DNA of 27,873 nucleotides, from IMG/VR virus record IMGVR_UViG_3300044768_000009, positions 1 through 27,873 of that record; one strand, given 5' to 3'. Of this stretch, positions 2,528 to 27,873 are shown piece by piece; within the stretch, counting starts at the first letter, position 1, and every line of letters begins with the position of its first letter. Origin of the DNA: a virus. Its lineage: Duplodnaviria > Caudoviricetes. The translations under genes and the position numbers were made by a program. Under the pieces are notes generated by a model, which made no database searches, was not told the origin of the DNA, and was given only the letters and a program-made list of their open reading frames with translations.

Positions 2528-3205
2528 CTACCGCCCCATGATCCGCTTGTACCTGCCGAGCGTCATTTTCAGCAGATCCACGGTTGGCCTCGCCAGTCCC
2601 ACCGGCTGAAGCGCTAGCATGGCCATGTGAAAAGCGTTCCAGGCGGCGCGAGTTGCCAGTGATTTCTTCGGTAGCCGCGTCTGAATCAGCACGTTCATGA
2701 TCGTGTAGTCCGATCCCACGATGACATGGCGCTGTATCGGCCGGTAGCGGTCGAAAAACCCTTGAGTGATGTACGTCTTGTGCCGCTCCAGCTCGTTGCC
2801 GTAAGCGCCGTCCTGGAAGATGTCGTGCAGCGGGGCGACGATGATGATGTGGTCGAACTTGCGCATGCACAGTTCCAGGCAGCGATGAACCTCGCGCGGC
2901 GTCAAGTGCTCGATCACGTCGCCGAAGATTGCCACCGAGTACGGCGCGTTGTTGTTGTCGAGCCAGTCTTGCAATAGCGAATGGCTCACGCGGTCATAGA
3001 CGCCGCTTGATTGCAGCGCGTCGGCCGCGGGCCCAAAGCCCTCGACCGCTACTAGCGTGCATGCGTTGCCCAGTATCCTGCGTACAATCTCGCCGTTTTT
3101 TCCGTGGCCCGCGCCGAAATCCACTACGCTGGTAGGCGCGAGTTTTCGCAACTGTTCGACCAGCGCGAAGTCGCAAATATATTCACTGAGTCCGAACTGC
3201 GTCAT
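2528..3205 (-). CDS. Class I SAM-dependent methyltransferase (moron-like)
   Basis: Motif I VVDFGAGHGKNG, acidic AVEG after strand 2, GDVIEHL motif. Confidence 0.85.
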   Translation of the reverse strand: MTQFGLSEYICDFALVEQLRKLAPTSVVDFGAGHGKNGEIVRRILGNACTLVAVEGFGPAADALQSSGVYDRVSHSLLQDWLDNNNAPYSVAIFGDVIEHLTPREVHRCLELCMRKFDHIIIVAPLHDIFQDGAYGNELERHKTYITQGFFDRYRPIQRHVIVGSDYTIMNVLIQTRLPKKSLATRAAWNAFHMAMLALQPVGLARPTVDLLKMTLGRYKRIMGR

Positions 3206-3343
3206 GTTGCCCCGCCTGTTTTGTTATTTCATTGTCGATCGGCCGTCGTTCAGCGGCTGTGACAGGTTACCCGTTCGCAGGATGTATACCTGTATCGATG
3301 AGACTTAAGGCGGCGGATTAATCGTTTTCGCCCGTCCCCGCTT

Positions 3344-3368
3344 GCCGGCCCAGCGCCGGCTTTTTTTT
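3344..3368 (+). terminator. Strong intrinsic terminator, tR'-like, preceding the late operon
   Basis: GCCGGC-CCAGC-GCCGGC followed by T8. Confidence 0.8.
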
Positions 3369-3438
3369 GGAGATTGTCATTGCCGCTAGTCAGCATCGCT
3401 GGATCTGGCTCGCGGCTCCTATTGCAGGCCAATAGCTA

Positions 3439-4848
3439 GTGGGTGTGCTGATCCTTCGCTCATCGCTGTCTGATGAGCCCGCGACGTTCGATTTCTACAT
3501 CTCGCCGACAGGATCGGACAGCAATGACGGGCTGACGACATCCACGCCGTGGGCAATCACGGCCATCAATACCAAGCAGGCGACGTACTCGCCGACCACG
3601 ATGACCGGCGACGTGCGCATCGGCTTGATGAATGGTACCTGTGACATTTCAGGTTTCACACCGAAAACCGGCGGATACGATCCGATACTTCAGGTCAAAG
3701 GCGGAACTTCCGGTGGTTCCGTCGTCCTTGAGGCGGTGAATGATCGCCTCGCGGTCATCGACGCGACCGGCGGCGGCTTTATCGATTGCCCGATCATGGG
3801 CGACAACACCGCCTCGCGTCGTGGCTATATCCAGATTCGTGGCATCAAGTTCGTGGGCGGCGAGTCGAAAACAATCTCGCTAGGCGACAACGGCTCGGCT
3901 ACCCCGGACTACGCAGGCTATGTGTTGGAGGATAACGAGATCACCGGTATGGACTGCCGCGGAGTGGCGGGCGGCGGCAATTACAGTTGCGTCGAGATCC
4001 ATTCTTTCGACGGGCCTATCCTGCGAAACAACTACTGCCACGACAACATCGGGCACACGCTGAACAGCGCGGATCATTGGGCAAATTTTCAACTCTGGGC
4101 CGGACAGAACCCGACGGTTGAGTACAACACTCTTATCGCCGGCGCGGTGTACGGCAAGGCGTCGAACTGCACCGGGCACCTGATTCGGTACAACTACATC
4201 GATGTCAGTTCGTTGACCGCTGCCGCGTGCTCGGCACTGCAGGATTGCGCTGGCACCGATTCGACCACGACCGGCACAAGCATATTCGAGCACAACGTGC
4301 TGATCGGCTCGCAGAACGACATGCGCGAGACGACAGGAAGTTCTTACTTTCACCACGCCGCGATATTTCGGTTCAACACGATCGTCATCAAAACCGCATC
4401 CGCGTCGGGCGGCTTGCTACTGCGCGCCGGCGCCGGATTGCTCGACCACTACGGCAATATTTACTACGAGGAGAGCACAAGCGGCGACCGCGGGTTCGTT
4501 TGGATAAACGACGAAGCCGACAACGTGTTCGACTACAACCATTACTACAACGTCAGCGGTGACAAGGTGTGGAAGCAATTCCTTGCACCAGCCGACAACA
4601 ATCGCAACAGCTACACGACACTGGCCACATTTATCACCGGCATGGGCGGCGGCATCGATGCGAATAGCGCAGATAGCGGCGATCCGCTGTTCGTTGGCTC
4701 AGGAGCAGGTGCGTTGTTCTATCAACTGCAAGGGGGAAGTCCGTGCAAAGACTCCGGCAAGAGCAACGGCCTTTCTGGTGGCACTACCTGCGACAAAGGC
4801 GCGTGGGGCGGGGCGACTCCGCCGACTCGCATAGGGTGTGACTTCTAA
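3439..4848 (+). CDS. Right-handed parallel beta-helix protein (pectin-lyase-like fold), putative polysaccharide-binding/degrading protein
   Basis: N-cap FYISPTGSDSNDGLTTSTPW; Asn-ladder coils (ILRNNYCHDN, VEYNTL, IRYNYI, FEHNVL, FRFNTI); C-terminal GDPLFV...YQLQGGSPCKDSG...DKGAWG. No signal peptide evident. Confidence 0.8.
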   Translation: MGVLILRSSLSDEPATFDFYISPTGSDSNDGLTTSTPWAITAINTKQATYSPTTMTGDVRIGLMNGTCDISGFTPKTGGYDPILQVKGGTSGGSVVLEAVNDRLAVIDATGGGFIDCPIMGDNTASRRGYIQIRGIKFVGGESKTISLGDNGSATPDYAGYVLEDNEITGMDCRGVAGGGNYSCVEIHSFDGPILRNNYCHDNIGHTLNSADHWANFQLWAGQNPTVEYNTLIAGAVYGKASNCTGHLIRYNYIDVSSLTAAACSALQDCAGTDSTTTGTSIFEHNVLIGSQNDMRETTGSSYFHHAAIFRFNTIVIKTASASGGLLLRAGAGLLDHYGNIYYEESTSGDRGFVWINDEADNVFDYNHYYNVSGDKVWKQFLAPADNNRNSYTTLATFITGMGGGIDANSADSGDPLFVGSGAGALFYQLQGGSPCKDSGKSNGLSGGTTCDKGAWGGATPPTRIGCDF

Positions 4849-5462
4849 TGGCGTGGACAACGCAAAAATACATAAACCTGCGCGCGACACAGGCATATGT
4901 TACTGACGGCACGAACCAGACCAGCCTTAACGAGGACGATGTTGCCGGCGGCGTCTACCCGATCAGTGTCACCCTCGACAGCGACACGTTCAATATTGGC
5001 TTCACCGATCCCCCTCAGTATCGAGACCGCGACAGCGGCGCCGACGCGCGATTGGCCGGCATTGGTTTCGGAAACAATGACGGAGCCGGCGTTCGCGAAC
5101 TGCGAATCAATACGCCGGCTGCCAACATTGGCGTGAGATTGGCGTTCGGCGACCCAGCTGGCGACCACCCATATCAAGAATGGGCGATCTATAACGACAC
5201 TACACTGCTTGAAACGATTGTTGTGTCAACCAATACGCCTGCGACACAGTGGCGCGATGCGTTCGGCACTTTGCACACTAGCAACGCCAACTGGATAGCT
5301 AATAACGCCGAGAAGACCTACAACATCACGAGTGGGATTTTGTGGGTCAAATATTGCTCTGTCGCCGCACAGACCGATGTCACATGCCTGGCGACGGTGG
5401 GTTTTAGGCAGATCGCTACAGCGGGAAGTCCGAGAAATCTTCTCTTGCTAGGCGTTGGCTAG
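4848..5462 (+). CDS. Beta-rich hypothetical virion accessory protein with C-terminal LLLLGVG tail
   Basis: TAATG-coupled ORF of 204 aa ending PRNLLLLGVG*. Confidence 0.7.
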   Translation: MAWTTQKYINLRATQAYVTDGTNQTSLNEDDVAGGVYPISVTLDSDTFNIGFTDPPQYRDRDSGADARLAGIGFGNNDGAGVRELRINTPAANIGVRLAFGDPAGDHPYQEWAIYNDTTLLETIVVSTNTPATQWRDAFGTLHTSNANWIANNAEKTYNITSGILWVKYCSVAAQTDVTCLATVGFRQIATAGSPRNLLLLGVG

Positions 5463-5463
5463 T

Positions 5464-7257
5464 GTGGGCTTCCTGTTACTTCGATCTTCGGTCATCGAGG
5501 TAGCTACCGGCGAGACGACAGTCCCGTTTAAATTTTCACCCGGTCATTACATCCTGCTGCCCAGTACGACGGGCTCGTGGGCGATAGAGGATGACATGGT
5601 GGTCATGGCGCTCTATGAGAACGATCCGCGAATCAAGGGATACGTGAAGCGGATTCGATGGCGGCACCTTGAGACCAATACGCAGGGAGACTACAGCAAC
5701 GGAGATGCGTTGCTTGCAACGTACTTAGGTGCGCTCGGTTCGGGCCAGAGGCTGGTGCTGAGTGTGCTCACGCAGCTCTATGGCGGCGTGCCGGTAGCGG
5801 ATGCACATAGCCTGCTGCCCACGTACTTGGACAACATTGACGGCGGTCCGTACTTCTACGACGGCACAGGGGCTGACTGGGGCGGCGCCCAGAACATTCA
5901 AGCTCATCTGAATACTCCCGGCGGCATGGAGGCCCATATCAACCTGTTCGAGCATCTGGCGGGACTGCTCGATGACGACGATCGCTTCGAAATGATCTCG
6001 AAGGGCGAGACCGCCGTGAGTACGCCATCCGCGCTGGGCTGGAGTTACAGCGACTACAAAAACGAGTTGATTACCAATTTCATTCCTCGTGCACGCACTG
6101 CATGGACGCGGACGCCGATCCGGATCGGCGTGAACTACATGCAGACCCAGGCACATATGCAGGAGGTGATAGAGGCCATGGTGCCCTATCAAATATGCGG
6201 CGGCGGTCCGGATACGCTGCCCAGAAGCGCCAGGGTGATCTGGGGCAATGACATCTATCAGGGCCGCACGGGCAGCCCGACGAAAGATTATCGCGGACTG
6301 ATTCCATGGATCTCGCAAGTGGATCTCACTGAGGTAGGCGGATATCTCGGCAATTTCACGCCAGCCCAAATATGGGGCGATCCCGACTACGGTCACGATG
6401 CGCTCAGGCCCACGCATTGGTTTTGGTATTACAACCAGCCAGGCGCCGCGCCCGACAGCACGGCAGCGACGCAATTCAATTCGATGCTGGCGTGGATGGA
6501 ATCGCATCCACTCACGACAGAAAACACGACGAATCCTTACGGCTCTGGAGTGGCGCCTCCCGATCCTGACCCGGGCGGTCCGGGGCCGATTGAATATATT
6601 GCGACGGGATCGGTGGTGGAGGCGAACTACGCGCCCGTCACGGTGGCGTATGGAGCTACGCCGCAGGCGGGTGACTTAGGTCTGATCTTTGCGTTCATCC
6701 AGACCGGATCGGCGGGCAAGACGCTCGCTTGCAACAATGGCTTCACGCTGCTGGATAGCTTCGGCGCCAGCAGCCAACAGCCGATGTACGTGTTCGGCAA
6801 GATCCTGAGCGCCGCAGAGACGGGTGCGATTATCACGCCCAGCGGCGGGGCGTCGGGTAACGTGGTGCAGGCATTCACGGTCCTGCTGCGCAACACCGCA
6901 GGCCCGATTTCCTCTGTCGTGCATAGCTTTGCACACAAGTCCACGACGGGCGCCAGTCAGACCAATGCGATTCTGACGCCGGCATTGACGATGACACAGG
7001 ACGACTGCATCGCATTCCTTGCAGTGTCTTTTCAGCTGGATTCCACCGGGATGGGCACCTTCAATCCTGGAGGTGCGGGCGCATGGACACAGCGCAAGCA
7101 TCAGTCCACGACGACGGGAAATAACCAGTCGATTGCGCTGTATTCGAGCCTGCAGACGACTGCGGCAAACATTGCGGCATCAACGCTGGCTGTCACCGGC
7201 CAGGCAACGGGTGTTACGGCGCGAACGATTGCGATTTCGATCAAGGCAAGTGTTTAA
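5464..7257 (+). CDS. Two-domain protein: glycoside-hydrolase-like (TIM-barrel) N-domain, Pro-rich linker, C-terminal beta-sandwich
   Basis: KFSPGHY, RIRWRHLETNTQGDYS, GETA and GGPD segments resemble GH-type barrels; linker APPDPDPGGPGP; Thr/Ala/Ser-rich C-domain. GTG at 5464 preferred over TTG at 5455. Confidence 0.6.
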   Translation: MGFLLLRSSVIEVATGETTVPFKFSPGHYILLPSTTGSWAIEDDMVVMALYENDPRIKGYVKRIRWRHLETNTQGDYSNGDALLATYLGALGSGQRLVLSVLTQLYGGVPVADAHSLLPTYLDNIDGGPYFYDGTGADWGGAQNIQAHLNTPGGMEAHINLFEHLAGLLDDDDRFEMISKGETAVSTPSALGWSYSDYKNELITNFIPRARTAWTRTPIRIGVNYMQTQAHMQEVIEAMVPYQICGGGPDTLPRSARVIWGNDIYQGRTGSPTKDYRGLIPWISQVDLTEVGGYLGNFTPAQIWGDPDYGHDALRPTHWFWYYNQPGAAPDSTAATQFNSMLAWMESHPLTTENTTNPYGSGVAPPDPDPGGPGPIEYIATGSVVEANYAPVTVAYGATPQAGDLGLIFAFIQTGSAGKTLACNNGFTLLDSFGASSQQPMYVFGKILSAAETGAIITPSGGASGNVVQAFTVLLRNTAGPISSVVHSFAHKSTTGASQTNAILTPALTMTQDDCIAFLAVSFQLDSTGMGTFNPGGAGAWTQRKHQSTTTGNNQSIALYSSLQTTAANIAASTLAVTGQATGVTARTIAISIKASV

Positions 7258-7272
7258 GAGGTATTTGCAGCC

Positions 7273-9318
7273 ATCGCGAGCAACACTACGCTCAACCCCG
7301 GCGTGTCAGGGGACGTCATTGCGACAAAGGAGCGCACGCACGACGGTGACGCCACGAAGGTTCAAGTTGTTACGCTTGCCGGTGTCACGGGCACGGAGGG
7401 CGCGTATACCTTTGCCGATGTGGCTGCAGGCGCCGGCGCAGAGGCGGCAGCGCTGCGGGTTACGCTCGCGACTGAGTCGTTAGCCGCGCTTGAGACGATC
7501 AGCGTTGCGGCCATTGCGGCCGGTGACAACAACATCGGCAATGTCGATATCGTGTCTTTGCCGGCCTCGACGAATACCCTCGAAGTCGTCGGCGACGCGG
7601 CGCACGACGCAGCCGCAGCAGGTAACCCCGTCCTGATCGGTGGCTACGCCTCGGCGACAGAGCCTGCCGATACGAGCGCGGACGGCGATGCGGCTCAATT
7701 GTGGCTGCTACGCTCTGGCCTGCTGCCCACGACGATGCGCGACTCCGTCGGCGACTCAGCCATGGACGACGCCAACAACGCACTGCGAGTCAACGTCGTG
7801 GCGGGCGGCGCGGCGGGCGGAACCTCGACGGCAGACGATGCGGACTTCACCGCTGGCACGACTGCGGGCACATCGATCCAGGGTGTATACGAGTCCAGCC
7901 CGACGAGCGTGACGGATGGCGATCTGGGAACGGTAGGGATCACCCAGACGCGAGCCCTGAAGGTATCGATTGCCTCCGGTGGCATCGCCGGCGTCGTGGA
8001 AGACGCGGTAGCGGCGGGTGCGGAAGAGGGGATCATGGTCCTGGCGGTGCGCCGGGATGCGGCGAGTTCTGGCGTGAGCGCTGACGGAGATTTTGCCGCT
8101 TTGTCGGTGACTTCGGACGGCTCGCTGCGGGTATCCGGATCCTCCGGCACCACTCAGTACACCGAAGATGGCGCAAGTGCAGGCGCCGAAGCGCTGTGCT
8201 TGATGGGCGCGGTACGCCGGGATACGGCGGCGTCCAGTTCTGGAACGGACGGGGACTATTCCACGATCAACGTGGATGCCAGCGGTCGCGTTCACGTCAA
8301 CGTCGGGGCATTGCCTGCGTCGACCAACACCATTGAGGTCGTTGGCGATGCCGCCCATGACGCCGCCGCCGCCGGCAACCCGGTACTGAACGGCGCCTAT
8401 GCCTCTGCGGCGGCTCCAACAGATGTTTCTGCCGATGCGGACGCGGTCCGTCTTTGGGCTTTGCGCAGCGGCGCGCTGGCGGTCCAACCCACCATGGCGG
8501 GCGTGCTGGCCGTCGCCGGAAACGGCGCCTCTGGCACGGGCGTCCAGCGCGTCACCATTGCCAATGACTCCACCGGCATTTTAGCGACCGTCACCAACGT
8601 CGCTACGATCGGTACGTCGGTCACGCCTGGCACGGCAGCGGCCAATCTCGGCAAAGCAGAAGACGCTGCGCACGGCTCGGGCGACACCGGCGTCATGTCC
8701 CTCGCGGTGCGGACAGATACTGCGGCGGCATCCTCTGGCACGACGGGCGACTACGAGCCACTCCACACCGACTCGGTAGGCGCCCTGTGGACGCGAAGCA
8801 CGGGCGAGCTGGCTGATGATGCCGCATTCACCCCCGGCACATCCCGCGTGCTTCCTGTCGGTTTCCAGGCCGATGAGACCGCAACCGACAGCGTCGATGA
8901 GGGAGATGTTGGCGCGGCCAGGATTACGCTGGACCGCAAGCAGATTGTCACCCTACAGCCGCATACTCAGGGCGGATTGACCATCTTCCGGTCCCTGGAT
9001 ATCGATGAGACGGAAGAGGACGTCAAGACTTCCGCGGGGCAGTTGTACTTCATCCATGCCATGAACATGGTGGCCACGGCGCGGTATTTGAAGTTCTACA
9101 ACGCGACGGCGGCGAACGTCACCGTGGGGACGACGACTCCATTGCTCACGTTCCCTGTTCCTGCAAACAGCACGACCGGTGCCGGGTTCACTGTATCCAT
9201 TCCGCAGGGAATTCCTTTCAGCACGGCAATCAGCGTCGCATGCACTACGGGATTGGCCGACAATGATACCGGCGCACCTGGAACTTCGGATGTTATAATC
9301 AATCTCGGATATATGTAG
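7273..9318 (+). CDS. Long Ala/Asp/Gly/Thr-rich repeat fibre protein with C-terminal globular domain
   Basis: At least seven ~45-55 aa internal repeats. Start uncertain: ATC at 7273 after a GAGGT SD, or GTG at 7303. Confidence 0.75.
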   Translation: MASNTTLNPGVSGDVIATKERTHDGDATKVQVVTLAGVTGTEGAYTFADVAAGAGAEAAALRVTLATESLAALETISVAAIAAGDNNIGNVDIVSLPASTNTLEVVGDAAHDAAAAGNPVLIGGYASATEPADTSADGDAAQLWLLRSGLLPTTMRDSVGDSAMDDANNALRVNVVAGGAAGGTSTADDADFTAGTTAGTSIQGVYESSPTSVTDGDLGTVGITQTRALKVSIASGGIAGVVEDAVAAGAEEGIMVLAVRRDAASSGVSADGDFAALSVTSDGSLRVSGSSGTTQYTEDGASAGAEALCLMGAVRRDTAASSSGTDGDYSTINVDASGRVHVNVGALPASTNTIEVVGDAAHDAAAAGNPVLNGAYASAAAPTDVSADADAVRLWALRSGALAVQPTMAGVLAVAGNGASGTGVQRVTIANDSTGILATVTNVATIGTSVTPGTAAANLGKAEDAAHGSGDTGVMSLAVRTDTAAASSGTTGDYEPLHTDSVGALWTRSTGELADDAAFTPGTSRVLPVGFQADETATDSVDEGDVGAARITLDRKQIVTLQPHTQGGLTIFRSLDIDETEEDVKTSAGQLYFIHAMNMVATARYLKFYNATAANVTVGTTTPLLTFPVPANSTTGAGFTVSIPQGIPFSTAISVACTTGLADNDTGAPGTSDVIINLGYM

Positions 9319-9323
9319 CCAAT

Positions 9324-9411
9324 GCGTGCTGTAGCTCAGTGGGAGAGCAGGAGCGTCGAGGTTACCTCGGTTAGCTTTTCGTCGCAGGTTCGATCCCTGC
9401 CAGCACGCACC
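9324..9411 (+). ncRNA. tRNA-like RNA with canonical D and T arms but an extended, near-closed anticodon arm
   Basis: Acceptor GCGTGCTG/CAGCACGC; TA; D arm GCTC-AGTGGGA-GAGC; T arm GCAGG-TTCGATC-CCTGC; anticodon region GGAGC-GTCGAGG-TTA-CCTCGGT-TA-GCTTT; no encoded CCA. Confidence 0.75.
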
Positions 9412-9416
9412 TAGCC

Positions 9417-9824
9417 ATGCTGCTCACGCTCCAGCTCAACAACCTGCTGGAAGATGGGGCAGAGGACACCACCCCGAACCAGTTCAGCTTCACCGATCAG
9501 TCCGGGGTCGCGCTCTCAAGCACGATCACGAGCGCACCGGTCACCATCACCGGGATCGATGCCGCCGCAGCCATCACCGTCTCAGGCGGTACCTACGACA
9601 TCAACGAAAGCGGAACGTTCGTCAGCACTGAAGGCACGGTCGTCAGCGGCGATACGGTCAGGGCGCAGCATACGTCGAGCGCGAGCTATCTCACGGCCAC
9701 AAACACCGCCGTGACGATCGGTGGGGTGGCGGATACGTTCACGAGCACGACCGTGATCGATCCGGCGGATATCACCCACGCGACGAACGACAAGATTCAC
9801 TTCGGCTTTGGTTTCGGATTCTGA
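9417..9824 (+). CDS. Small beta-sandwich adaptor with C-terminal FGFGFGF tail
   Basis: DTTPNQFSFTDQSGVALSSTITS Ig-like domain; N-terminus MLLTLQLNNLL; C-terminus KIHFGFGFGF*. Confidence 0.75.
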   Translation: MLLTLQLNNLLEDGAEDTTPNQFSFTDQSGVALSSTITSAPVTITGIDAAAAITVSGGTYDINESGTFVSTEGTVVSGDTVRAQHTSSASYLTATNTAVTIGGVADTFTSTTVIDPADITHATNDKIHFGFGFGF

Positions 9825-9831
9825 GGTAGCC

Positions 9832-10101
9832 ATGACAAATCCCATCGGCCCGGTAACAGTGCCGTCGTATCCCGGCCGAGTGGTCGCCGTGACGGCGAGC
9901 GATTCGACGCGTTTTGCGCCCTCGGTGATTGTGCTCGGTAGCCCCGGCGTAGCCCACTTGATTCCAGCCATTCCGAACGGCGCCACCGCTATTGTATGGA
10001 CGACGACGGCTGAGAACTTCGTCGTGCCGGGCCTGTACGTCGGCGTCAACGCAACGAGCCTCACCGCCAGCGACGTGAAGCGAGTGCAGGTGAACGAGTA
10101 A
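9832..10101 (+). CDS. Putative capsid head-spike base protein (RcGTA Rcc01079-like)
   Basis: GAGGT SD; 89 aa; VAVTASDST...VIVLGSPG...VVPG...VNATSLTASDV resembles the family pattern as I recall it. Confidence 0.6.
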   Translation: MTNPIGPVTVPSYPGRVVAVTASDSTRFAPSVIVLGSPGVAHLIPAIPNGATAIVWTTTAENFVVPGLYVGVNATSLTASDVKRVQVNE

Positions 10102-10400
10102 TGTCTACGGACTACGGACTCACTCCCGACAGCGGGCCAGCGAGCTATAGCAAGACGCCAGATGAGGCGATCGCTGTCGAATTTCCGTGGGCCGCAAGAT
10201 TGGATGGCGAGACGATCTCCAGCGTGAGCTACGAACTGCCAGACGGGCTGACGAACGAGGCAGAGGCGGGATCGACCTCGCTGCGAACGGTGAGAGTCTC
10301 AGGCGGTAGCTGCGGTCTGTATCGCGTCATTGGGAAGGTGACGACCAGCGCAGCCAGGGATCTGGAGTGGGTGCAGCGGGTTATTGTGAGGGAGGGGTGA
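10101..10400 (+). CDS. Phage fibre-adaptor-like small protein
   Basis: KTPDEAIAVEFPWAARLDGETISSV...VRVSGG..G.YRV pattern; TAATG-coupled. Confidence 0.6.
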   Translation: MSTDYGLTPDSGPASYSKTPDEAIAVEFPWAARLDGETISSVSYELPDGLTNEAEAGSTSLRTVRVSGGSCGLYRVIGKVTTSAARDLEWVQRVIVREG

Positions 10401-18810: not shown

Positions 18811-20187
18811 ATGCGCCTTCAATTCGGACTTGAGGCGTACCAACATCGAAGCAAACCGGTGGCCGCGCAGCGCCTGGTCAATTGCTGGCTAGAGAAGTCG
18901 CCGGTCGGTGCAAAGAATCCAGTCGCATTGATTGGCAGTTATGGAATCGCCGATTTCACCACCGCCGGAACGGGCTACTTGCGCGGCGGACTGGTTGTTA
19001 AGAACGTGGCCTGCGTCGTGTCCGGAACCGGTCTCTACCGGATCAGTTCAGGCGGCACGGCGACACTGCTCGGCACAGTGCCCAATTTAGACCGCGTGAG
19101 CATGGCAGGTGACGGCACGAATATCATGATTGTCACCGGTGGTGACGGTTATGTGTGGAATGGCACGACTGTCGCGCAGATTACCGATCCGGACTTCCCC
19201 GGCGCGGATTGGGTCGTGTACCTCGACGGATATTTCGTCATCGGGATCAATGGCGAGGTGTACATCTCTGACCCGTTCGATCCCACGGCATGGAACGCGC
19301 TGGAATTTGCAAGCGCTGAAGCCTCCCCTGATGACATCGTCGGCGCCATCGTCGAGAAACGCGAGTTGTTCATCGGTGGCCAGGACACGATTGAAGTCTG
19401 GATGAATACCGGGAATGCCGACTTTCCGTTGGAGCGTATCCCCTCCGGGGTCTGCGAGATCGGCTTGTTGTCCCGATTCGGATTCGCGAAGGCGGACAAC
19501 TCCGTGTTCTTTCCGGCAACGGATTTTACGGTGCGTCGAATGGACGGCTACACGCCTGTCATCATCTCGACGCCCGTCATCTCTCAGGCCATCGAAGACT
19601 TGGCCGACAAGACCATGTACGGCATGACATGGACCGAAGGCGGTCACACGATGTACGGATTGACGTCGAGCGAATGGACCAAGGTTTTCGATACCTCCTC
19701 GCAGTTGTGGCACGACAGGAAAAGCTACGGCTACGAGTATTCGCGGCCGATGTTCGCGCTGAACACTTACAATAAGTGGTTGATGGGTGACGCGCTGTCG
19801 AACAAGATCGGGCAGTTGTCTGCGGATACCTTCACCGAGTGGGGCGACCCGCTCGTCATGCTGGGCTCGGCCTATGTGAGCGCGCAGGACAACGCGCAGA
19901 TCACCTCGGGACGACTTGAGCTTGCCTTTGAGCAGGGCGTGGGGCTCGCCACTGGCCAGGGCTCAGACCCGCAAGTGATGATGCGGCAATCCTTCGATGA
20001 CGCCCGTAAATGGACGAGTGAGGCGTGGCGCGACATGGGGCGCATTGGCGAGACCACGAAGACGGCGGTATGGAATCGATGCGGCAAGGTTCAGCATCCC
20101 GTGTCCAGAACGCTTGAATTCTCAATCTCCGATCCCGTACGACGTGCTTTGATCTACGCCACTTACGGACCGAGGGAAGGCGAGTGA
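18811..20187 (+). CDS. Packaged-DNA stabilisation/tail hub protein (P22 gp10-like)
   Basis: 458 aa; YLDGYFV, FASAEASPDDIVG, TIEVWMNTG, DPQVMMRQSFD, ISDPVRR motifs. Confidence 0.88.
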   Translation: MRLQFGLEAYQHRSKPVAAQRLVNCWLEKSPVGAKNPVALIGSYGIADFTTAGTGYLRGGLVVKNVACVVSGTGLYRISSGGTATLLGTVPNLDRVSMAGDGTNIMIVTGGDGYVWNGTTVAQITDPDFPGADWVVYLDGYFVIGINGEVYISDPFDPTAWNALEFASAEASPDDIVGAIVEKRELFIGGQDTIEVWMNTGNADFPLERIPSGVCEIGLLSRFGFAKADNSVFFPATDFTVRRMDGYTPVIISTPVISQAIEDLADKTMYGMTWTEGGHTMYGLTSSEWTKVFDTSSQLWHDRKSYGYEYSRPMFALNTYNKWLMGDALSNKIGQLSADTFTEWGDPLVMLGSAYVSAQDNAQITSGRLELAFEQGVGLATGQGSDPQVMMRQSFDDARKWTSEAWRDMGRIGETTKTAVWNRCGKVQHPVSRTLEFSISDPVRRALIYATYGPREGE

Positions 20188-21011
20188 CGGTCGGGATTCT
20201 GCGCATTCCGAAGCAGTTGCCTAAGAACAATCGCGAGTGGGAGCAGTTCACGCAGAAGCTGAATCAGGGAATTCAGTTGAACGGTGAGCAGATCGTACTG
20301 AGCACGCTGACAACTATCGCGGAACGCACGGGAACCGACTTAGATTCGCTGCTCGCACTGATCACAGATGACGGACGTGCCGAGAACCAGCGATTCCTGA
20401 ACATGATCACATTCGGAAACGCACCGAGCGTTCAAAGCTCAATTCCGATTACGGCGTCCGCGGACGCGGTGACGGCCGAGATCCAGATCGGCGCACACAC
20501 GCTTCACTATGGCGGTCTCACGCTCGCCTATAACGCCGGCACGGTCACCGGTCTTTTGCCATCCGCCGATTATTATGTATACGCGGACGATCCGACCCTT
20601 GTCGGTGGCGCGGTGACGTATCAGGCGACGACGAACTACGTCAATCTCGCGGGATCGAAGAATCGCTACCTGATCGGCGCCATCAGGACGCCGGTGTCAT
20701 CGATCTCCGCGGCTGTGAGCGCGGCCACGAATGCAAATCCCTGTGCGATCACGACGGGCGCGGCACATCTGATGAGCACCGCAGATCAGGTCACGTTCTC
20801 CGGCGTGGGCGGCATGACGCAGTTGAATTCACTACCGGCGGCGGCGATCACGGTAACTAGCCCAACGTCGTTCACGCTGAATGGCGTCGACTCGACTGCG
20901 TTTGGCGTATACACCGCAGGCGGCACAGTGACACGCGTAACCTCTCCTGCGGACGGCTTAGGCGGTGGTGCGGGCTACGGCTACATCTACGACATCGGGA
21001 TTTACTACTGA
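20184..21011 (+). CDS. Tail-associated protein with C-terminal FCCH-like beta domain
   Basis: GTGA-coupled; ATNANPCAITT..HLMSTADQVTFSGVGGMTQLN...FTLNGVDSTAFGVYTAGG; occupies the tail-needle position. Confidence 0.65.
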   Translation: MTVGILRIPKQLPKNNREWEQFTQKLNQGIQLNGEQIVLSTLTTIAERTGTDLDSLLALITDDGRAENQRFLNMITFGNAPSVQSSIPITASADAVTAEIQIGAHTLHYGGLTLAYNAGTVTGLLPSADYYVYADDPTLVGGAVTYQATTNYVNLAGSKNRYLIGAIRTPVSSISAAVSAATNANPCAITTGAAHLMSTADQVTFSGVGGMTQLNSLPAAAITVTSPTSFTLNGVDSTAFGVYTAGGTVTRVTSPADGLGGGAGYGYIYDIGIYY

Positions 21012-21015
21012 AGCT

Positions 21016-21252
21016 ATGGCCGTCACCGTAAAGCGCGTCCTCATCGGCAACGATCACGACGATACGAAATGGATCGTCATTGAGGGGTCCATCGAAGGCT
21101 GCCTGCAAGTCACGAAACGCCGCACGATCAACACCTCGGCCCTGGCGGATGGATCGCTGACGCTGGCCGCGGAGAAGGCGAAGCTCATCGCTGATGTCGA
21201 GGAATATCACGCCCGTTGGATCGCGGTGCAGAGCGCGCTTGAGGATCTTTGA
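21016..21252 (+). CDS. Hypothetical protein
   Basis: ATG at 21016; TGATG coupling to the next gene. Confidence 0.6.
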   Translation: MAVTVKRVLIGNDHDDTKWIVIEGSIEGCLQVTKRRTINTSALADGSLTLAAEKAKLIADVEEYHARWIAVQSALEDL

Positions 21253-21878
21253 TGCGGCACACGTTGATTCAGGTCGATGACTTTGCGCCAGACGCGGCGG
21301 AAGTCAGGAAGGCCGTGATTGAGGCGGGTTTTTCAACTGAGAAGGGGCCTGACGGTTTCGATTACACCGGCATCTGCAAGTACGAAGTGCCGCACTGGTT
21401 CGATCTGATATCGAAGGCGCTCGGGCAGAAAATCACGCCAAAGCTGTCGTGCTTTCGCCTCAACCTCGCCGGTGAATTGCCGCATAGCTGGATTCACAGC
21501 GACGACATCTGCGCGCAATTTGCGAGTGTCCTATACCTGAATCCGCCTGAGCAGTGTCGTGGCGGAACGGCTTTCTGGCGGCACACTGGGCTGCAGCTTG
21601 ATGAAATGCCGCCCTGGGAATCGCATCCCTCGCAAACCAGCGGTGAGTGGTTCCTGTCGATGATGAATCGCGAGTGGAAGGATTTGACCTTCTGGGAGCA
21701 ATCCGGATTCGTGTCGATGCGCTTCAATCGGTTCATCACGTATCCGACGTCACGGTTTCATAGTCGCTACCCGTTCGAGGGATTCGGGACTGGGCCACAG
21801 GATGGTCGTCTTATCTGGGCTTGCTTCTTCTCTGTAGAGGATTCGCTTGAGCGAACTGCACCTGCTAACAGCAGCTGA
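21252..21878 (+). CDS. 2OG-Fe(II) oxygenase-like protein (DUF6445-like)
   Basis: HSD...H facial triad (WIHSDD, RFHSR), VLYLNPP...GGTAFW, FNR, distal RL. Confidence 0.8.
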   Translation: MRHTLIQVDDFAPDAAEVRKAVIEAGFSTEKGPDGFDYTGICKYEVPHWFDLISKALGQKITPKLSCFRLNLAGELPHSWIHSDDICAQFASVLYLNPPEQCRGGTAFWRHTGLQLDEMPPWESHPSQTSGEWFLSMMNREWKDLTFWEQSGFVSMRFNRFITYPTSRFHSRYPFEGFGTGPQDGRLIWACFFSVEDSLERTAPANSS

Positions 21879-22290
21879 GGTTCCGCTGCTCTTGCCGCTG
21901 ATCCGCCAGTTCTTCGCGGAGGGCAATATTCCCGGCAAGCTCAATGAGCCCTATGCGGTCTCGACATTGCAGAAGCACCTGCAAGCCGACAGTGGATTCG
22001 TTATTGCGGCTGGTTGTCCGATTCGCGGCGCTATTTGCGGCGTGATGTTTCCAGATATGGCGACTGCGGAGCCCTGCGCAATAGAATTTTTCTGGTACTG
22101 CATGGCAGAGGAGCGCGGGTCGCTCGGGATTCGCCTGCTCGACGCGTTCGAGAAGGAAGCATTCCGACGCGGCGCGGTGCGCGTGATGATGTCGCATCTA
22201 TCAACACCAAAAACGGAACGGTTTGAATCCATGTACGCACGGCGAGGCTATGTGAAGCGAGAACAGATCTTCATGAAGGCGGCGCCATGA
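21847..22290 (+). CDS. GNAT-family acetyltransferase
   Basis: EFFWYCMAEERGSLGIRLLDAFE motif A and YARRGY; P22 gp14-like position. Confidence 0.82.
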   Translation: MSELHLLTAAEVPLLLPLIRQFFAEGNIPGKLNEPYAVSTLQKHLQADSGFVIAAGCPIRGAICGVMFPDMATAEPCAIEFFWYCMAEERGSLGIRLLDAFEKEAFRRGAVRVMMSHLSTPKTERFESMYARRGYVKREQIFMKAAP

Positions 22291-23150
22291 GCGGCGTTAC
22301 TGGCGCAATTATCGGCGGGGCCGTCGTTACTGCTGGCGCTTCCGTCTACAGTTCCAGGCAGGCATCGAATGCGACCGGCAGTGCTGCAAGTTCAGCTACC
22401 GCAGAAAACTCACGCCAGTTCGATACTGTTCGCGCAGACACCGCAGCACAGCGTCAGCTCGGCCAGGGCGCTACCGGATTGCTCTCGCGCCTCTACGGCC
22501 TGCCCGCGTACTCTGAGGCGGGTGCACGAGCGCAAGCCCCTGTGGTAATGGGTGATACAGAGTTGCCGCCTGGCACGATGGCAGTCAGCCCGGGAAACAA
22601 GAGCGGCTCCGATATCACCCTCAATGGACAGGTGATCGGCCGCGTAGTGCCTGGCGGCGCTAACGGTCGTTTTCTCCCGGCGGCTGGCGTAGATATCAAC
22701 GCGCTGTGGGCGCAACAAACGCAACAGCCAGGAGCGACTCCTGCAACGAACGCAGCGACTGGTCCTGATTTATCAGGATTCTTCGAGAGTCCGGACTATC
22801 GCTTTAATCTCGGGGAAAGCGAGAAGGCGTTGGACAGATCACTGCTCGCGCGCGGTCGAGGCATATCCGGCGCCGGGGTGAAGGAAGGCGTTCGCCTAGC
22901 ATCCGGCGCAGCCTCGGGTGAATTCGGCAACTTCTTCAACCGATTGACCACGCTCGCCGGCATTGGCAGTGCCGCAACTAACACCTCAGCACAAGCCGGG
23001 CTCACTACCGCCGCAAACAATTCGAACATCATTACGAATGCCGGCAATCAGCGGGCGAGCGCATATGTGCAGGGCGCTGCCGGAGTGAACAACTCTGTGC
23101 AAGGCGGACTCAGTAATTGGCTGCTTATGAACCAGATGAATAAGGCATAA
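22287..23150 (+). CDS. DNA ejection/pilot protein (P22 gp7-like)
   Basis: Hydrophobic Gly/Ala N-terminus; FFESPDYRFNLGE...RGISGAGVKE motif. Confidence 0.75.
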   Translation: MSGVTGAIIGGAVVTAGASVYSSRQASNATGSAASSATAENSRQFDTVRADTAAQRQLGQGATGLLSRLYGLPAYSEAGARAQAPVVMGDTELPPGTMAVSPGNKSGSDITLNGQVIGRVVPGGANGRFLPAAGVDINALWAQQTQQPGATPATNAATGPDLSGFFESPDYRFNLGESEKALDRSLLARGRGISGAGVKEGVRLASGAASGEFGNFFNRLTTLAGIGSAATNTSAQAGLTTAANNSNIITNAGNQRASAYVQGAAGVNNSVQGGLSNWLLMNQMNKA

Positions 23151-23838
23151 ATTTCTTGCTGGGATTTCTTGGCGTACCCCGTCTGTGGAAGGTTGGAATT
23201 GAATTAGGTTGATTCTTTAATCTATACGGAGAAGGACCGAGAATTTTATCTGCAGGCAATCCATTATGGAGACGGTTGATTATTGTTATGTATGGAATGC
23301 CAAGTTCTTTGGACCATTGCAACGGAGTCATTGTTTTTCCGAAAGCGGAAATGCTTCCTAAGGATCGACTGGTGTTATTCATTTGTTCGTCGTTGGTAGC
23401 CCAACGACAATTTCCTGGCTCGTAATTGCCATCGTTGTTTGGGTAGCGGTCGATACTTAGTCCATTTGGCTTCTGACCCATGTCGGCGAGGAAGTTTTCG
23501 AAGAGAGCCCATCGCTCGCAAACAGCGATACCGCGACCACCGTATGATGACCATCTGGCGTTCTTAGGATTGGTGCAGCGCTGCCAAATCCTAACCCATG
23601 TTGTGTAGGTTGGATTTGCGGCATTGCCGTGAGTCTTTCGGCGCTTGCTTACTACTTCGCGCCGAAAGCATCCGCAGCTTTTTGTTTTGCCGGCAGTCAG
23701 TTCACTAGATTTTATTGTCTTAACAGTGCCGCAATCGCACTGGCAGTTCCAAGTTGCGCGACCTTTTGGTTTTGAGTGAAGATTTATTACTAAAAGTCGA
23801 CCGAATCGTCGGCCGGATTTATCATTGAATTTAGCCAT
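23125..23838 (-). CDS. Free-standing HNH-family homing endonuclease
   Basis: GRRFGRL...WNCQCDCG...TKSCGC, YGGRGIAVCERW, SIDRYPNNDGNYEPGNCRWAT; AGGAG SD before ATG at 23838; visibly AT-richer than its flanks. Confidence 0.88.
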   Translation of the reverse strand: MAKFNDKSGRRFGRLLVINLHSKPKGRATWNCQCDCGTVKTIKSSELTAGKTKSCGCFRREVVSKRRKTHGNAANPTYTTWVRIWQRCTNPKNARWSSYGGRGIAVCERWALFENFLADMGQKPNGLSIDRYPNNDGNYEPGNCRWATNDEQMNNTSRSLGSISAFGKTMTPLQWSKELGIPYITIINRLHNGLPADKILGPSPYRLKNQPNSIPTFHRRGTPRNPSKKFMPYSSGS

Positions 23839-23871
23839 GTCGTCACTCCTGTTCAGTGGTGGCTTGGTGAG

Positions 23872-23917
23872 AGGCCCGAGTAACGTTAGCGCGTTCTCGG
23901 GCTTCGCTATTTTAGCA
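23872..23917 (-). promoter_or_regulatory. Extended -10 promoter (TGcTAAAAT) and leader hairpin for the HNH gene
   Basis: Minus strand: TGCTAAAAT, then GCCCGAG-AACGCGCTAACGTTA-CTCGGGC. Confidence 0.55.
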
Positions 23918-23931
23918 CTGGAGCGCCCGTA

Positions 23932-25074
23932 ATGGCCGGATTCCAAACATTTTCGTTAGGCGACGTCCTCTCTACAGCTGAATCGATCAAAGGCGCCCGC
24001 CGGCAATCGAAACTCGATGAACTTCGCGAGATCTCCACGCGTCAGCAGATCGACATTCAGGGTCAACAAGCAAAGCAAGCGCAGACTCAGTTCACCGAGC
24101 AACAGCGCTTGGAAAATACGCGGTGGCTTGCGAATGCGACAGATCAGGTTCTGGCGATCACTGATCCCGCGCAGCAGATGGAGACGCTGAAGACGCTGGG
24201 CGAGGAGGGCAAGCGACGTGGAATCCTCGCGCCCAACGCAGATCTGAGCGGCGTGGATATGGCGAAGCTTGCGCAGTTGAATCGGAATGCGAAGCTGTCG
24301 CTGGGATCCGCTCCGCAACAAGAAACGATTCGCGATGAGAGCGGTGCAGTGTTGCAGCGTGATCCGACTACAGGCGCACTTAAGCAAGTGGTGGCGCCGC
24401 AGAAGCCCGCGCCCGTTGATCATTTCGCCGAAGCTGAGGCGGGCCGCAATGCGCGCGCAGCGCAGACGCCGAAAGGCCAGTTCCGAGCGCTGAACGCTCA
24501 GGAAATTGAAGCCGCTGGCCTGCCTGCCGGCTCCTCGGCGCAGATTGATGAGGGCACGGGGAAAATTGATGTGCTGTCCAAGAGAGACGCTACCGCGGCA
24601 CTGAGCCAGAAAGATGCAACCGCGGCTAAACTGAAACTTACGACTATCCAGGTTGGCAGAAGGCAACTGGAGAACATCAGGAAGGCGTTTGAAGAAGGCC
24701 GGACAGGTATAAATGCTTTCGGTCCAGGGCAAGGTCTTCTGCCAACGCAGGCCGGAAAGAAATTTGACGCAGCTATCAACCAGATTCGCGGCACATGGAC
24801 TGCGCTGAAGCGAGTGCCCGGAATCGGGTCGATGTCTGACTACGAATCCAAAATGGATGCCGCTCAGTTTCCTGGGCGAAACGATTACGAGTCTGTGATT
24901 GAACAGAAACTGCAGGACATGGAAGATCAGTTGGCACTGCTCGAGAACGGCTATTCGGGGCTGTTGAGCGGTGGCAGCGGCAGCAATTCAGCCAACGCCA
25001 CCGAGCAGGCATCACCGAAATCAGGCGCGACTTATAAGCACGCCAGTGGTGCCACCGTCGAGATTCTTCAGTAA
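23932..25074 (+). CDS. DNA ejection protein (second internal virion protein, gp20-like position)
   Basis: Helical Q/A-rich 380 aa; VPGIGSMSDYE motif; synteny. Confidence 0.65.
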   Translation: MAGFQTFSLGDVLSTAESIKGARRQSKLDELREISTRQQIDIQGQQAKQAQTQFTEQQRLENTRWLANATDQVLAITDPAQQMETLKTLGEEGKRRGILAPNADLSGVDMAKLAQLNRNAKLSLGSAPQQETIRDESGAVLQRDPTTGALKQVVAPQKPAPVDHFAEAEAGRNARAAQTPKGQFRALNAQEIEAAGLPAGSSAQIDEGTGKIDVLSKRDATAALSQKDATAAKLKLTTIQVGRRQLENIRKAFEEGRTGINAFGPGQGLLPTQAGKKFDAAINQIRGTWTALKRVPGIGSMSDYESKMDAAQFPGRNDYESVIEQKLQDMEDQLALLENGYSGLLSGGSGSNSANATEQASPKSGATYKHASGATVEILQ

Positions 25075-27287: not shown

Positions 27288-27873
27288 GTGTCACTAGTCA
27301 CTCTGCCCAGGCAACTTGCCGTCGACATCAACGGCACTCCAAGAGTCGGGGCGCGAGCTTACTTCTACCTGCCCACGACGACAACCGAGATCACGATCTA
27401 CACCACGGCGAGCTATTCGACTCCACACACGAACCCGGTGGAATCGCTCACTGGCGGGCTTTTTCCTGCAACGTACATCGACCCATCAGTAAACCCAACC
27501 TTTAAAATTGTCATAACGGATTCCGCCGATGTCGAGATCTACAGCGATGACAACGTCCCGGCGCTGGGATTTACTGTGGTCGATATCGGGTCGCTGCTCA
27601 ACCCGCGCACCGCCGCCGAGATCGCCGCGGGCGTTACGCCGGCGAATTACACGATCCCCTCCCACGACAATGTCGGCGTCGTCTACGTGGAGCGCTACGG
27701 CACGGCCGGCAACGCCACCGCGCTCGCCAATGCCCGCCTAGTCGCGAAGCAGGCGAACGCCGTCCTGTGGATTCGTCCCGCCACCTACAGCATCTCGACT
27801 GTATTCCTGATCGATCAGGATGCGATGAATGTGCACCTGGAACGTGGGGTCACTATTTCATACACCGGCACGG
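27288..27873 (+). CDS. Tailspike protein, 3'-truncated (head-binding domain and start of beta-helix)
   Basis: Translated by hand from GTG at 27288 (GAGGA SD): MSLVTLPRQLAVDINGTPRVGARAYFY...PHTNPVES...PRTAAEIAAGVTP...VERYG...LWIRPATYSI; open to the window end. Confidence 0.82.
   Translation, partial: MSLVTLPRQLAVDINGTPRVGARAYFYLPTTTTEITIYTTASYSTPHTNPVESLTGGLFPATYIDPSVNPTFKIVITDSADVEIYSDDNVPALGFTVVDIGSLLNPRTAAEIAAGVTPANYTIPSHDNVGVVYVERYGTAGNATALANARLVAKQANAVLWIRPATYSISTVFLIDQDAMNVHLERGVTISYTGT

Follow-up and report, generated by a model that had tools for sequence, protein, structure and literature searches.

What could hold together the products of seven neighbouring late genes in the viral record IMGVR_UViG_3300044768_000009 (Caudoviricetes), and why do several of these proteins begin or end in a short hydrophobic peptide? 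The seven open reading frames (ORFs) all lie on the plus strand, between a Q-like gene (1840-2298) and the small terminase gene terS (10650); gene and RNA coordinates are positions in the window, which is the whole 27,873-nucleotide (nt) record. Our answer, to which we give a probability of roughly 55%, is that a spike-base homologue, a linker with two terminal tags, a hub fibre and three proteins that putatively bind or cut sugars would assemble through their terminal peptides into a branched spike at the corners of the capsid. This reading is built from homology, peptide motifs, gene order and the co-occurrence of tags with partner genes, and from these we predict binding, position on the virion and activity. 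The ORFs and terminal tags listed in a preliminary description of this DNA are all present on the plus strand, as follows (aa, amino acids).

3344-3368, plus strand: intrinsic-terminator-like hairpin, 6-bp GC stem plus T8, ahead of the cassette; presumably tR'-like, judged by its position
3439-4848, plus strand: 469-aa putative tip protein; N-terminal tag MGVLILRSS at 3439-3465, GTG start
4848-5462, plus strand: 204-aa protein; conserved core of about 185 aa, exchangeable C-terminal tag LLLLGVG at 5439-5459, stop through 5462
5464-7257, plus strand: 597-aa putative tip protein; N-terminal tag MGFLLLRSS at 5464-5490, GTG start
7273-9318, plus strand: 681-aa hub fibre; ATC start, N-cap, repeats and C-terminal jelly-roll
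9324-9411, plus strand: tRNA-like RNA between the hub and linker genes
9417-9824, plus strand: 135-aa bivalent linker; N-terminal tag MLLTLQLNNLL at 9417-9449, C-terminal tag IHFGFGFGF at 9795-9821, stop to 9824
9832-10101, plus strand: 89-aa head-spike base homologue; divergent member of the Carin-1 gp40 / Rcc01079 family
10101-10400, plus strand: 99-aa Gp77-like collar or fibre-tail adaptor candidate (Pfam PF23148)

The root of the proposed spike is the 89-aa protein, which matched PDB 8CJZ_h, 'Spike Base Protein', at E 1.2e-5 with phmmer and at E 1.4e-6 with a profile; Carin-1 gp40 (92 aa; PQ119497) is annotated as 'head spike base protein, structurally validated'. The 12-member base family (A1) aligned with eight Rcc-like bases of other phages (A3) at an hhalign probability of 89.9 (E 1.7e-6), and A3 matches Rcc01079, the base of the Rhodobacter gene transfer agent (RcGTA) head spike, at E 2e-15. 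It is because of these two steps that the window's protein is tied to Rcc01079, and by such transitive sequence homology it is a divergent member of the spike-base family. In addition, NF048002 matches seven of the 12 A1 members (best E 2.3e-6). Searches of viral contigs with the base and with its alignment, and a tblastn search of cultured phages, returned no matches, and the single-sequence fold of the window base had a predicted local distance difference test score (pLDDT) of 40. Very probably the protein forms a pentamer at the capsid vertex, as its homology to the known base would suggest.

The gene that ends 7 nt upstream of the base gene encodes the linker, whose last residues, IHFGFGFGF, have the spacing of the RcGTA star peptide, here at the C-terminus. 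In PMC7296036, the RcGTA star peptide IALGLGLGL is described as occupying five pockets of the base pentamer, and the I-F-F-F-F series of the linker would probably fill the five pockets of the window's base as I-L-L-L-L does there, a prediction drawn from the motif and from its company. Star-like termini are rare: of the 2049 genes called in viral loci L001-L158, 13 have one, and five of the 13 are neighbours of bases. A star-tagged gene adjoins eight of the other 12 Rcc-like bases; it lies upstream, with the star at the C-terminus, in four cases and downstream, with the star at the N-terminus, in the remaining four, Carin-1 gp39 (which starts MLGLGLGI) among them. In L079, an unrelated PASTA protein ending in CHLGLTLGF precedes a close base homologue (80% identical). 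The preliminary description had named in advance a lack of similarity between this base and Rcc01079 as grounds for rejecting its proposal; the gene proved to be a spike-base homologue with a star-tagged neighbour.

The linker itself appears to be an adaptor with exchangeable ends. Its homologues (192, of which 120 were examined) have in common a core, about 100 aa long, which we take to be immunoglobulin (Ig)-like and which also occurs in bacterial genomes. Among the 120, the N-terminal tag is MLLxLQL in 63, an IW-repeat in 29, one of three small classes in 13 and something else in 15, and the C-terminal tag is a star in 27, RPFSFNWW in 38, GGMMIFG in 24, RRxLLQ in four and other in 27. The two ends combine independently of each other (p 0.72 for the two main N-terminal by three main C-terminal classes, which cover 73 of the 120 proteins). 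Short linker-like ORFs were compared in 14 viral loci, two of which look unrelated, and their C-terminal tag follows the identity of the next gene: a star is followed by an Rcc-like base in 3/3 loci, RRxL[LF][HQ] by a 161-aa family in 3/3, RPFSLNWW by a 109-aa protein in one locus, and an Arg-rich end by a Gp77-like gene in two. Unnamed proteins of 108-161 aa occupy the base position in L082:7344-7829, L090:10372-10857, L096:10375-10860, L081:10363-10692 and L030:9005-9331, and these proteins, each with its own linker tag, are candidates for new socket families.

The hub fibre consists of a conserved N-cap (about 7273-7386), DA-type repeat units spaced about 50-57 aa apart, and a jelly-roll head (8941-9315) modelled at pLDDT 89. 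It has homologues in 78 viral loci and no Pfam, PHROG or PDB match. The head recurs among uncharacterised viral proteins (36 BFVD matches at E up to 0.001), and against solved structures it gave generic jelly-roll matches only (best Z 7.2). The hub's start codon at 7273 is ATC, the first ordinary start being a GTG at 7303; alignment with its homologues begins at the ATC-encoded residue, and ATC is likewise the start in 2 of the 20 homologues scored, so that this start is not a sign of decay. These two are at L030:9350 and L025:6376, and the sequence upstream of the former is almost identical to that in the window.

Tag associations with the hub were counted in 72 dereplicated hub loci, 64 other viral loci and 76 loci from metagenome-assembled genomes (MAGs). 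LLLGVG-type ends, which in hub loci stand on unrelated proteins, occurred in 16/72 hub loci compared to 1/64 other viral loci (p 1.7e-4) and 0/76 MAG loci; the corresponding figures for MLL tags were 8/72, 1/64 (p 0.036) and 0/76. The two tags followed different ends of the hub. LLLGVG accompanied the J1/J2 type of jelly-roll head (12/35 vs 4/37, p 0.023) and was not associated with the N-cap (7/27 vs 9/45, p 0.57), while MLL accompanied the N-cap (6/27 vs 2/45, p 0.046); for the N-cap set, L028 was dropped and L024 added by eye. A DNA scan for LLLGVG before a stop codon gave 114 matches, most of them chance, of which nine end a called gene of at least 100 aa; of these nine, four lie on 621-nt loci and one (L317) is unrelated. 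The J2 jelly-roll was present in four of the five long loci, one of which had seeded the J2 hidden Markov model (HMM). These co-occurrences incline us, by a modest margin over even odds, to a model in which the MLLxLQL tag of the linker holds the hub N-cap and the jelly-roll head holds the LLLLGVG protein. In 5/5 loci (L081, L083, L084, L087 and L096, about 2800-10400) a GRLVGGKLVGGNL tag at a C-terminus accompanies a second family of hubs, whose proteins begin MRDI.

The same pattern of exchangeable ends was found in the putative tip proteins. Thirteen proteins homologous to the 204-aa protein all lack LLLLGVG and end in other recurring motifs. The core of the 204-aa protein, which has no Pfam match, is presumably lectin-like or like a carbohydrate-binding module. 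The preliminary description took the 469-aa protein for a beta-helix, and its appearance may suit a beta-helix or lyase-like protein; searches of Pfam, PHROG, NCBIfam and PDB gave no match that would bear this out. Its one homologue-level match, a protein of L099, is 32% identical and has a different N-terminus. The 597-aa protein, described earlier as glycosidase-like, comprises the MGFLLLRSS tag, a glycoside-hydrolase-like domain (about aa 15-365), a Pro/Gly linker and a C-terminal domain. The label found a lead in the ESM Atlas, at 0.97 to clusters in which 15-20% of members carry PF02449 (glycoside hydrolase family 42, GH42), but no Pfam or PDB match, and a viral-contig search with this protein returned nothing. 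A full-length homologue in L030, 48% identical, begins MAILIAKRS and shares 17 acidic residues with it, among them E182 and E290 as putative catalytic glutamates. A hub, an Ig linker with an MLL tag, two genes with RS tags and one with LLGVG stand together in that locus, the star alone of the four tag types being missing.

The xLxLRSS tag begins the upstream gene of the cassette in at least 12 other loci, which carry several hub types and differing portal and capsid genes. The conserved linker core is a candidate socket for the xLxLRSS proteins, an idea to be read with the knowledge that most xLxLRSS loci were selected by the linker. We hold at slightly under even odds the conjecture that both xLxLRSS proteins serve as additional tips or as alternatives to one another, seated on a predicted socket within the chain, and catalysis by the putative tips is more doubtful.

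Taken together, the likeliest order would run from capsid vertex to base pentamer, linker, hub and LLLLGVG protein, with the xLxLRSS proteins as further tips. By analogy to RcGTA, polysaccharide of a capsule or biofilm may be bound, and perhaps also trimmed, by the tips, so that the virion would first attach reversibly and engage its short tail afterwards. The individual tags are mostly not conserved in the way that the preliminary description would lead one to expect, with LLLLGVG on no homologue of the protein that bears it here and the star on under a quarter of linkers, but tags turn up on bodies that are not related and vary in step with partner genes, which supports docking. The earlier idea of a two-part spike expanded into a chain is thus supported in part, by base homology, star neighbour and the co-variation of tags with partners, but not for its Gp77-like member. 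A broader version is more tentative: that swappable, mutually exclusive tags and sockets build a three- or four-tier, enzyme-armed vertex antenna in environmental phages, in which the Ig linker, its ends exchanged independently, would join any of a number of vertex bases to any of a number of hubs and the ATC start would set the amount of hub.

Head spikes, two-part when solved, and peptide-docked branching on tails are already known. The RcGTA head spike comprises the Rcc01079 pentamer base and the Rcc01080 fibre (PDB 6TB9; PMC7296036 and PMC10218006), and according to PMC10218006 the fibre binds capsule and is helpful, not obligatory. The window resembles RcGTA and Carin-1 (gp40 and gp39; PDB 8CJZ, PQ119497) in having a homologous small base with an adjacent peptide of alternating hydrophobic and Gly residues, and in the proposed first attachment to capsule. 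It differs in that its star is C-terminal and aromatic and stands on a 135-aa linker with a second tag instead of on a sugar-binding fibre, and in having, besides, a hub and tags of three more types. It does not have the two-part RcGTA form, with a fibre held by an N-terminal peptide, since no protein of the block has an N-terminal star. The branched receptor-binding systems of Klebsiella phage KP32 (a branching domain and a conserved peptide), CBA120 and G7C, described in PMC13352976, are similar in being layered and modular, with one sugar-active protein docked on a domain of another by a short peptide at its terminus. They sit on the tail, with an anchor domain, T4 gp10-like branching domains and N-terminal peptides, whereas the window's root is a capsid-vertex base homologue, its tags are used at both termini and T4 gp10 is not among the matches listed for the hub head. 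The HFTV1 turret, a gp30 hexamer and gp31 trimer with carbohydrate-binding and putative deacetylase domains, is also a head appendage proposed for first attachment, but it has two components on archaeal-virus hexons, and the accessible text of PMC12494034 describes no series of terminal tags; its match to the hub head is weak and generic (E 0.018). The literature searched, which took in few subscription papers, yielded no description of a chain of several tags rooted in a vertex base. The cellulosome to which the preliminary description likened the block is an analogy only, as none of the seven proteins has a cohesin or dockerin match in Pfam.

If the branched spike is real, phage heads bear layered sugar-binding and sugar-cutting assemblies made from a small set of plugs of 7-11 residues. 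This would account for the recurrent hydrophobic ends of many unannotated phage proteins, and would allow partners to be predicted from tags. It would also supply small peptide-socket pairs that are easily tested and usable for capsid display.

Several observations weigh against such a spike. At its root, NF048002 did not match the window's base at E up to 1, HMMs built from A3 fail to recover it, and an Rcc-type base is absent from four of five whole cassette-bearing records (the one with NF048002 is the star-tagged record), so that such cassettes need not sit on an Rcc-type base. A star neighbour is lacking for three of the 12 other Rcc-like bases and weak for one, and no obvious base adjoins the linker in 3 of the 14 short-linker loci (L087, L093, L111). 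The ATC start means that the hub protein may be scarce. By our search pattern 56 of the 72 hub loci have no LLLGVG-type gene, the tag patterns were drawn up after examples had been viewed (p values between 0.02 and 0.05 are to be taken as post hoc), and the 64 control loci are partly tail-fibre loci. Signal-peptide-like leaders on 4/13 homologues of the 204-aa protein and on one base (L088) fit poorly with a part of the virion, and the enzyme assignments have neither Pfam nor PDB support. Lastly, loci with the 681-aa hub show no enrichment of xLxLRS tags (4/72 vs 2/64, p 0.68), and these tags are found with different hub types, as would suit an explanation that we think unlikely: that the head spike consists of base and linker, perhaps with the hub, while the other tagged proteins dock independently elsewhere on the virion, for instance on a decoration protein, collar or tail, as parallel appendages. 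The sockets inferred within the block serve the other tags, and two further genes (17090 and 17656) without family assignment stand directly after the capsid gene. Against parallel appendages, LLLGVG and MLL tags track different ends of the hub, and the genes keep their order in phages whose portal and capsid genes differ, which a socket within the cassette explains better than one on the variable capsid.

The free shuffling of tags and bodies is also compatible with a mosaic of late accessory genes, in which several tags have been orphaned by recombination and the sugar-active proteins are freed at lysis or otherwise stay off the virion. Related cassettes with signal-peptide-like leaders, a reverse-strand methyltransferase-like gene within the Q-terS interval, a tRNA that looks degenerate and a Gp77-like gene with no evident partner all agree with this idea. 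We judge it improbable, given that reading frames are intact across the block, that a crude check found signal peptides in 0/7 block proteins (as described earlier), that the block contains a socket gene for every tag with an inferred socket, and that the hub's ATC start is shared by scored homologues. The Gp77-like gene itself raises the further idea that fibre and tips are attached to a neck collar instead of capsid vertices, as in podophage GP4. The product of 10101-10400 scores 43.7 bits against Pfam PF23148 (Gp77), where the cut-off is 27 and to which the GP4 collar protein gp77 belongs (PDB 8JOU as cited in PMC13730344), and that paper presents the GP4 and DEV collars as providing tail-fibre sites. 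Yet a Gp77-like gene is absent from all 12 other xLxLRSS loci, although the same HMM detects such genes in 8 other loci; in four of these eight (L080, L085, L094, L143) the preceding gene has an Arg-rich end, a candidate collar tag, and no block gene ends in one, so the window has no fibre of the kind that precedes Gp77-like genes elsewhere. The window's linker bears a star and adjoins a spike base, and attachment to the collar seems very improbable. Plugging of xLxLRSS into Gp77 was considered and dropped on the same absence from 12/12 loci. Pfam Gp77 was found in 0/5 whole records in a search that had no positive control. In the branched-spike reading, which we prefer to these alternatives, the Gp77-like protein is probably a separate neck collar outside the chain.

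The genes, described earlier as closely packed, are not all so: the tRNA-like RNA lies within the 98-nt gap 9319-9416, and it scores 45.7 bits against Rfam tRNA. It has a 19-nt hairpin instead of an anticodon loop, its CCA is not encoded, and an ARAGORN call of tRNA-Leu(GAG) was doubted after Rfam and folding. It may be a processing site in the operon or a degenerate tRNA. The hairpin plus T8 proposed as a tR'-like terminator is present at 3344-3368, but the window has seven sites of its class compared to 6.1 in shuffled sequences, no excess. In all seven block genes the GC content at third codon positions (0.64-0.80) exceeds that at first and second positions. Bases, hubs or tips with signal-peptide-like leaders were seen in L088:9301-13029, L082:3285-6897, L355:7738-11643, P0137-P0139 and P0141, and extra enzyme-looking genes are inserted within the cassettes of L089, L093 and L096.

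Elsewhere in the window, a P22-like portal, an Sf6-type small terminase, and head-closure and DNA-ejection genes indicate a short-tailed phage. Among sequencing runs the best is a sediment metagenome, from which this DNA may come; a second run contains only pieces of it, and no RNA dataset was among the holders listed. The Q-like gene is a weak match to phrog_79 (E 0.0035). NCBIfam TIGR04197 gave weak matches only, under the cut-off. A tailspike proposed earlier at 27288 was not confirmed, because its ORF runs off the contig and has no family match. Between the Q-like gene upstream and the cassette downstream, the minus strand carries the methyltransferase-like gene (2528-3205; Pfam E 0.002). 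The tail region encodes a protein with a ubiquitin-activating-enzyme FCCH-like domain (20184-21011; Pfam E 4e-13), DUF6445 and GNAT-like genes lie within the tail/ejection block (21249-22290), and a reverse-strand HNH endonuclease gene (23125-23946) is inserted between ejection genes.

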